Part shown: positions 41,714-42,037 of the stretch, in pieces
How the letters are laid out: each line of letters begins with the position of its first letter
How positions within the stretch are numbered: the first letter of the stretch is position 1
Virus genome (UHGV): UHGV-0390448
Direction: 5' to 3' (one strand)
DNA from: a virus
DNA length: 64,000 nt
Notes under the pieces: generated by a model
Seen by the model: the letters and a program-made list of their open reading frames with translations, nothing else
Told to the model about the DNA's origin: nothing
The model's database searches: none
Position numbers and translations under genes: made by a program

Positions 41714-42037
41714 ATGACCACATCGCATTCTGCAATCACCCAGGAAAAAGTATTTCGCTTGCTCGAACGTCTGGAGGCGCTCGCCACGGAGGAGGATATA
41801 TCCCCGGAGATGCTGGTCGAGTGCAGCCGTGTGATATTGCGTCGCAAGAACGACATCGCGCGGCTGACATCTGGCGCACCATCCGTATCAGCCAGTCCAA
41901 CGCTTTATTGCAGCTTCTGCAACAAATCCCAGCACACCGTTAAAAAGTTAATTGCCGGGGACAACGTTTTCATCTGCAACGAGTGCGTGAAAGATTGCAA
42001 CAACATTATCCAGGAAGAGCAAAGGGAATCAGCATGA
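41714..42037 (+). CDS. Small protein with ClpX-type zinc-binding-domain-like C-terminus
   Basis: C-terminal [36 protein letters not shown] parallels the ClpX N-terminal zinc finger ([21 protein letters not shown].ECV). Confidence 0.55.

Follow-up and report, generated by a model that had tools for sequence, protein, structure and literature searches.

The window analysed here, a stretch of 64,000 nucleotides from the virus genome UHGV-0390448, is a D6-like, P1-related Escherichia coli phage-plasmid (92% identical to phage D6 over the aligned 59% of the query). Within a tightly packed accessory operon it carries a short gene whose 107-residue product ends in a free-standing counterpart of the host unfoldase ClpX's zinc-binding domain (ZBD); we refer to it as the ZBD protein. 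The stop codon of the upstream gene (41710-41712) lies 1 nucleotide before the ATG of the ZBD gene, and the TGA of the ZBD gene overlaps the start of the downstream gene (ATGA at 42034), so the gene is one link in a translationally coupled chain. It is 100% identical on circular plasmids of ~90-95 kb from human, pig, bird and wastewater isolates, and PGAP called the identical coding sequence on plasmids with such a copy. An AlphaFold2 model, for which 15 family sequences served as input, has a mean predicted local distance difference test score (pLDDT) of 73.5; in it, two N-terminal helices are followed by a linker of low confidence and then by a C-terminal beta-hairpin and helix. The N-terminal helices form a hairpin that we presume to be an oligomerisation module, and the linker is probably flexible or disordered, judging from the model. 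Coordinates of these and other features are collected in Table 1.

Table 1. Positions in the window of the ZBD gene, its parts, its operon and two further loci discussed in the text.
Feature	Position	Strand	Basis or remark
ZBD protein gene (ATG, 107 codons, TGA)	41714..42037	+	List of open reading frames (ORFs) and sequence
Shine-Dalgarno region aaaggagag (AGGAG at 41703-41707)	41701..41709	+	6 nucleotides 5' of the ATG; read from sequence
N-terminal helical hairpin (helices at residues 10-25 and 31-52)	41741..41869	+	AlphaFold2 model; specific to the family
Linker (residues 53-62)	41870..41899	+	Low confidence; pLDDT <50 at residues 56-60
ClpX-type C4 zinc-binding domain (residues 63-106)	41900..42031	+	Pfam PF06689, PDB sequence and fold matches, conservation
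Downstream gene (235 residues; phrog_6026 module of ~115 residues, then an Ea22-like coil)	42034..42741	+	
Accessory operon, tightly packed, containing the ZBD gene	39490..44225	+	ORFs, Pfam and PHROG scans, PGAP annotation of a near-identical plasmid
Perfect 14+2+14 palindrome, TGTTAGAAAATCAA AA TTGATTTTCTAACA	39418..39447	.	Separates the divergent ref gene from the operon's first gene
HumD, pre-truncated UmuD'-like protein (Peptidase_S24)	52831..53220		Immediately upstream of phd-doc
phd-doc, P1-type addiction pair	53293..53511 and 53514..53891		98.6% and 100% identical to the pair on plasmid CP085065

The identity of the C-terminal domain is clear. Residues 65-101 score 64.2 bits (E=9.8e-18) with PF06689 (zf-C4_ClpX), for which the gathering score is 27, and span profile positions 2-39 of 39. 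In a phmmer search of the PDB, 1OVX and 2DS5, both of the E. coli ClpX ZBD, rank highest (E=1e-15). The modelled domain fits 2ds5, 2ds6, 2ds7 and 2ds8 to within 0.6-0.8 Å over 38 residues (68-71% identity; target TM score 0.81-0.90), and is thus predicted to have the same fold, a beta-hairpin treble-clef-like zinc ribbon followed by a C-terminal helix. The strength of these matches excludes a chance resemblance, and residues 63-106 constitute a bona fide ClpX-type ZBD. A preliminary description of this DNA had recognised, from the letters alone, a small phage protein with a free-standing ClpX ZBD, and the Pfam, PDB and model results bear this out; the element is indeed a phage, of the D6-like phage-plasmid type. 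The motif it gave for the ClpX zinc finger was correct overall, except that E. coli ClpX has VYIC where the phage protein has VFIC. It also placed the finger rightly at the C-terminus, although the domain covers about 44 residues rather than 36. The alignment to the ClpX ZBD that it proposed as a check gives 28 of 40 residues identical to UTI89 clpX (70% in a direct comparison). In all, 28-31 of the 40 residues are shared with host ClpX, the identity rising to 78% in P88-type relatives. The preliminary description did not mention the helical N-terminal module that always accompanies the ZBD, the distribution of the family over three phage backbones, or the existing RefSeq annotation of the domain.

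The phage ZBD retains not only the fold of its E. coli counterpart but also the CxxC-x18-CxxC ligand set (C66, C69, C88 and C91, aligned with ClpX C14, C17, C36 and C39) and the docking pocket, in which F68 and I98 are the counterparts of ClpX F16 and I46. The two domains differ in a set of polar surface changes (G18N, E23T, P31D, S32N, D41K, L42D and D45N in ClpX numbering) and in their setting: the ZBD of ClpX is N-terminal and precedes an AAA+ unfoldase, whereas the phage ZBD is C-terminal, behind a helical hairpin. There is no AAA+ module in the 107 residues, and among the NCBIfam models only ClpX positions 5-50 are matched. Its scores with the ClpX equivalogs TIGR00382 (47.5 bits; cutoff 359) and NF003745 (43.6 bits; cutoff 370.75) lie below the thresholds, and the ZBD protein is not a ClpX.

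Nor does the domain look like a recent acquisition from the host. At the nucleotide level the ZBDs of the family are 62-66% identical to host clpX (62% for the gene in the window), the same codon is used for fewer than half of the conserved residues, synonymous sites are saturated, and a blastn search against 5426 E. coli genomes gave no match to clpX. Together these observations rule out recent capture; the capture is old, and the protein sequence has been kept ClpX-like by selection.

Relatives of the whole protein are found in a narrow range of hosts. A word-indexed search of 5.8 billion proteins yielded about 20 clusters of full-length relatives (59-93% identity), and all of the named ones are from Escherichia or Salmonella. 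The protein matches PHROG 6797 (function unknown) over its full length (E=1.1e-56, with residues 1-106 aligned to positions 1-106 of a 107-position profile), and the P88 homologue matches the same profile at E=1.5e-58. An exhaustive phmmer search of 1.84 billion representatives with the N-terminal 62 residues gave no functional lead: seven of its nine matches belong to this family, either as ZBD proteins or as truncated copies, and of the remaining two P0040 is a low-complexity protein made of repeats and P0042 an artefact of repeats. The seven include a second, P88-type subgroup, in which the N-domain is 44-54% identical to that of the window protein. Two scans of species-representative genomes found no family member. 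The first had no match of any kind, and the second had only ZBD-type matches, in Clostridia, Sulfurospirillum and others sharing 'IAGDxVFIC', with no match to the N-domain; these are presumably ClpX genes.

Copies occur in 195 of the 5426 complete E. coli genomes (~3.6%, or about 1 in 28), including UTI89 and O55:H7 CB9615, and the 205 copies are split roughly evenly between plasmids and chromosomes. Three temperate-phage backbones carry them, in their accessory or early regions. In D6-like and PhiR41_1-like phage-plasmids the gene always lies among Ea22-like genes; in P2-like prophages (phage P88, UTI89, O55:H7 CB9615 and E. marmotae) it follows gpA-ParM-ParR and precedes the portal gene; and in one lambdoid prophage it is downstream of DnaT-domain and lambda-P-like replication genes. 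The ParM/ParR (StbA/Plasmid_stab_B) pair is present between gpA and the ZBD gene in the P88-type P2-like prophages (L003, L005-L008, L010 and L011). Such a plasmid-type segregation system was unexpected in an integrating P2-like phage.

The family is under purifying selection, with pairwise ratios of nonsynonymous to synonymous substitution (dN/dS) of 0.43-0.55 within the D6-type relatives, falling to 0.14-0.20 in comparisons with the P88 type. Among 27 distinct family ZBDs, the four cysteines, F16, I28, G30, I35 and V40 (ClpX numbering) are invariant, and position 46 is I, V or L in 26. These figures bear on the suspicion, which the shortness of the gene, its unknown function and an old misleading name might raise, that it is a decaying, non-functional 5' fragment of clpX or an artefact of gene calling. 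We regard this as extremely improbable. The reading frame is intact, with a proper Shine-Dalgarno sequence and translational coupling on both sides; the gene recurs in all of the genomes and backbones listed above, with low dN/dS at long distance; the zinc ligands do not vary; and the domain is the C-terminal part of a novel fusion rather than the truncated start of a clpX gene. The conservation data effectively refute decay. The name in question, 'carboxylate--amine ligase', is attached in GenBank to the homologues in D6 (NC_050154.1 78777..79097) and P88 (NC_026014.1 10195..10527), to P0003, P0004, P0008 and P0010, and to others. It is unsupported in any profile search, and we treated it as a propagated mis-annotation. 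Newer RefSeq records use the product name 'ClpX C4-type zinc finger protein', and the family is catalogued as PHROG 6797, so recognition of the domain is not new and novelty lies only in the function proposed below.

All of the family members that we recovered carry a helical module in front of the ZBD, with a short low-confidence linker, ..L(T/K)SGAPSVS.., between the two. That module is the two-helix family hairpin in most members, and an unrelated coiled coil of the Ea22 type in P0022 (from L009) and P0024. L009 is homologous to the window from 41858 onwards, a point within '..ARLTSG', through the ZBD and into the next gene. The joint at 41858..41899 (6153..6194 in L009) also matches the 'AENAELKS' coil end of the downstream Ea22-like gene (42402-42442). 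A stretch of the form '..A(E)N/DxA.L(K/T)SG' ends the helical part in both Ea22-like and ZBD genes and is the point of crossover in the natural chimera; it looks like a microhomology joint for the shuffling of C-terminal domains among accessory genes. The ZBD therefore behaves as exchangeable C-terminal cargo, as the C-terminal domains of Ea22 proteins do.

Lambda Ea22 forms a tetramer; it has a flexible joint and a C-terminal domain that is dimeric, can be swapped and is thought to bind an unknown host protein (PMC10834534). The ZBD protein shares with Ea22 (PF13935) a genomic neighbourhood and a general plan, in which a helical oligomerisation part and a flexible joint carry an exchangeable dimeric C-terminal domain. 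On this basis the ZBD might have nothing to do with ClpXP and serve simply as the compact, dimeric zinc-ribbon end of an Ea22-style protein that binds a different partner in the host, for instance to tilt the choice between lysis and lysogeny. Its position amid Ea22-like genes and the exchange of its C-terminal module at the same joint as in Ea22-like proteins fit this idea, but we consider it unlikely. The N-domain of the window protein has no detectable similarity to Ea22 or homology to its Ea22-like neighbours, and the C-terminal domains of Ea22 are unrelated alpha/beta folds. The phage ZBDs have remained 70-78% identical to that of host ClpX, surface pocket included, despite saturated synonymous divergence, which is hard to explain unless they must still recognise ClpX ligands. 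We also considered whether the N-domain could be a diverged Ea22 module and rejected this: hhalign against both flanking Ea22-like proteins gave a probability of 0.1%. The ZBD protein has no PF13935 match, and all that it shares with these neighbours is the five-residue joint RL(T/K)SG.

In ClpX, the ZBD is a dimer on which SspB, RssB, trigger factor and lambda O dock (PMC7226468, PMC7804408). Without it, ClpX fails to degrade lambda O and the sigma-S that RssB delivers, but its degradation of ssrA substrates persists (PMC7226468, PMC7804408). F16 and I46 form a hydrophobic side pocket used by trigger factor, lambda O, SspB and RssB, and ClpX mutated at these residues still recognises and unfolds lambda O and delivers it for degradation (PMC7804408), so that their conservation in the phage family is unlikely to be purely structural. 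When added in trans at 5-20 µM, the isolated E. coli ZBD inhibits RssB-dependent sigma-S degradation by 0.6 µM ClpXP, and it crosslinks to RssB (PMC7226468).

By analogy with the isolated host domain, we propose, with a probability of roughly 45%, that the phage protein is a free-standing, probably oligomeric ZBD copy that acts as a decoy and shields the ZBD-dependent clients of ClpXP. The suggestion in the preliminary description that such a mimic could compete for the adaptors or substrates of ClpX is thus plausible. We infer that it binds zinc, dimerises, oligomerises through its hairpin, binds ligands and affects proteolysis. The ZBD would fold and dimerise like the host domain and present the same hydrophobic docking pocket, and could thereby capture the peptide signals that tether adaptors and some substrates to ClpX; candidate ligands are the XB tail of SspB, RssB, the N-terminus of UmuD, N-terminal motifs of the lambda O type, MuA and trigger factor. 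The N-terminal hairpin, or the Ea22 coiled coil in the chimeras, would join ZBD dimers into a multivalent particle with avidity for dimeric adaptors. The weakness of single-site affinities is what makes such multimerisation by the helical module plausible, and this arrangement would explain why any oligomerising helix suffices. Clients that depend on the ZBD would then be selectively protected, while ZBD-independent degradation, such as that following direct recognition of ssrA, would go on. Literature searches returned no functional study of the ZBD protein family or of any free-standing phage ZBD.

The in vitro data suggest that free ZBD is a weak competitor. One residue speaks against simple mimicry: the equivalent of ClpX L42 is aspartate (D94) in the subgroup of the window protein, whereas 24 of the 27 distinct ZBDs have V, L, A or I there. 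Helix periodicity alone would put L42 one turn from I46 on the same face of the helix, and the substitution might retune the pocket.

The hairpin could also be read as the business end of the protein. In that case the phage ZBD would pair with a ClpX ZBD, or dock elsewhere on ClpX, and the hairpin would either recruit a specific host or phage protein to be degraded by ClpXP or block the pore, making the protein a hijacker or adaptor. The ZBD is a dimerisation domain, as crosslinking has established for ClpX (PMC7226468), and the hydrophobic residues of its C-terminal helix are largely conserved. In the hairpin, E11, E18, R19, E21, A24, E26, E27, E36, R43, R44, D47 and L51 are invariant between D6-type and P88-type proteins, a pattern expected of a specific binding surface, and among close relatives dN/dS is lower in the hairpin (0.22-0.38) than in the ZBD (0.42-0.74). 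We nevertheless find this improbable. The ZBDs of ClpX are already paired within the hexamer at a very high local concentration, which should make invasion by a free ZBD unfavourable. The chimeras exchange the whole hairpin for an unrelated Ea22 coiled coil and keep the ZBD, which argues that the N-terminal module has a generic, oligomerising role rather than binding a particular client, and other phages encode proteins that consist of the ZBD only.

Examples of such ZBD-only ORFs are one of 72 residues in Caulobacter phage Cr30, one of 65 residues in Pseudomonas phage PP9W2 that is named 'Clp protease', and an unnamed viral protein of 57 residues. The Cr30 and PP9W2 ORFs, and PHROG 12435 and 5259, resemble the window protein in being free-standing ClpX-type ZBDs with no AAA+ module; they differ in lacking the N-terminal hairpin and in belonging to other types of phage and other hosts, and they are likewise uncharacterised. 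In Cr30 (L012; NC_025422.1 1507..1725) the 72-codon ORF is replaced in the record by a 41-residue gp170 that starts inside the domain and was probably mis-called. The Cr30 ORF is an independent example of a free-standing phage ClpX ZBD. In Caulobacter, the ClpX ZBD docks the adaptor CpdR. Full-length ClpX is encoded by the jumbo phages G, Paride and Atu_ph07.

If the ZBD protein is a decoy, candidate clients are found on the element itself, namely the Phd antitoxin of a P1-type phd-doc pair and the UmuD'-like HumD encoded next to it. UmuD' is delivered to ClpXP by UmuD, which tethers to the N-domain. Phd is a ClpXP substrate according to Lehnherr and Yarmolinsky 1995, as cited in PMC10286901. 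Neither can be a general target of the family, since both genes are absent from the P2-like carriers. More widely, the decoy could act on replication initiators, on sigma-S through RssB, or on labile antitoxins that belong to the defence systems of the host.

The setting of the P88-type genes points in another direction. They sit in the P2 gpA-gpQ locus, a documented hotspot of anti-phage defence (PMC9122126, PMC13586616), which makes conceivable a role in conflict between phages, for instance against ClpX-dependent ones such as Mu, or in blocking toxin-antitoxin defences that are triggered by proteolysis. Blocking of that kind is known from T4 PinA and T7 Gp4.5, by way of Lon, and from lambda RexB, by way of ClpP-dependent proteolysis. 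The ZBD copy would then serve as a weapon, not as a housekeeping stabiliser. Produced by a prophage or phage-plasmid, a multivalent decoy would deprive competitors of ZBD-dependent ClpX functions that they need, one candidate being the remodelling by ClpX of the Mu transpososome; made early in infection, it would keep ClpXP from labile antitoxins and so block protease-triggered abortive infection. It would be the first viral effector to copy the substrate-docking domain of a host protease. We hold this version to be doubtful.

The shielding of ClpXP clients that we favour would have parallels in outcome. T4 PinA and T7 Gp4.5 act on Lon, and lambda RexB acts on ClpP-dependent degradation; all three are small phage accessory proteins that reportedly protect labile proteins against one of the host's ATP-dependent proteases (reviewed in PMC10286901). 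The proposed effect of the phage ZBD protein is the same, but there is no sequence relationship, none of the three copies a domain of the protease, and the activity of the ZBD protein is one that we infer. The targets of RexB are Phd, MazE and lambda O. RexB is a membrane protein, and we know of no mechanism described for its reported block of ClpP-dependent degradation. Another analogy is with the RssB anti-adaptors IraP, IraM, IraD and IraL, small proteins that stabilise a ClpXP client, sigma-S, by blocking delivery by its adaptor; IraD and the ClpX ZBD have been proposed to share a docking site on RssB (PMC7226468). The Ira proteins have unrelated folds and are specific to RssB, whereas a ZBD copy could in principle bind every ligand that docks on the ZBD. 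Profile searches showed no homology between the ZBD protein and PinA, Gp4.5, RexB, IraD, IraM or IraP.

A decoy of this kind would join the known modulators of AAA+ proteolysis and anti-adaptors as one that copies the protease's own docking domain, which none of the known ones does. Key phage and host regulators depend on ClpXP for their stability, namely lambda O, MuA, the Phd antitoxin of P1, UmuD', sigma-S and those ssrA-tagged proteins that SspB delivers, and a decoy would offer a simple means of selectively re-routing host proteolysis with the protease left running. It could also serve as a genetic tool for separating ZBD-dependent from ZBD-independent functions of ClpXP in vivo. Effects on RpoS, SOS mutagenesis or toxin-antitoxin stability, if any, would matter for the physiology of pathogens, given how common the family is in complete E. 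coli genomes, with UTI89 and O55:H7 CB9615 among its carriers.

The 5' part of the accessory operon around the ZBD gene encodes a small ORF, a DUF4406 protein, a small DNA-binding protein, an Ea22-like protein and, directly 5' of the ZBD gene, an Ead/Ea22-family (PF13935) protein. The ZBD gene is followed by the 235-residue phrog_6026/Ea22-like protein, a DUF4752 protein, two small ORFs and a NinI-like phosphatase. The gene 3' of the ZBD gene depends on context: it begins with the phrog_6026 N-module in the window, PhiR41_1 and L009, with variable C-terminal parts thereafter (DUF551 in L009); it belongs to phrog_26213/660 in P88-type prophages; it is an unrelated ORF of 169 residues in L005; and in D6 there is none. 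PADLOC-DB models of defence and toxin-antitoxin systems matched neither the ZBD protein nor three of its neighbours, and a PHROG 'antitoxin' match to the ZBD protein was not significant (E=0.1). The variable downstream gene and the negative PADLOC result rule out an obligate partner of the kind found in toxin-antitoxin pairs.

Upstream of the operon, the palindrome listed in Table 1 is a candidate repressor operator. Its half-site, TGTTAGAAAAT(C/T)AA, occurs 11 times in the window against an expectation of 0.79 (14 nucleotides, at most 2 mismatches), at 15980, 18994, 27766, 35398, 38787, 39418/39434, 44274, 57885, 59282 and 63724, and these positions are conserved in D6 and in plasmid CP085065. 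We also searched the window for the P1 C1 operator consensus and found no match within 3 mismatches, only this different dispersed motif. The dispersed half-sites are probably the D6-type counterpart of the set of P1 C1 operators. If the palindrome is an operator of the C1 type, the lysogen would be expected to keep the operon repressed, with expression starting at induction or infection. One copy of the half-site lies just upstream of a DUF968/pdcB-like gene.

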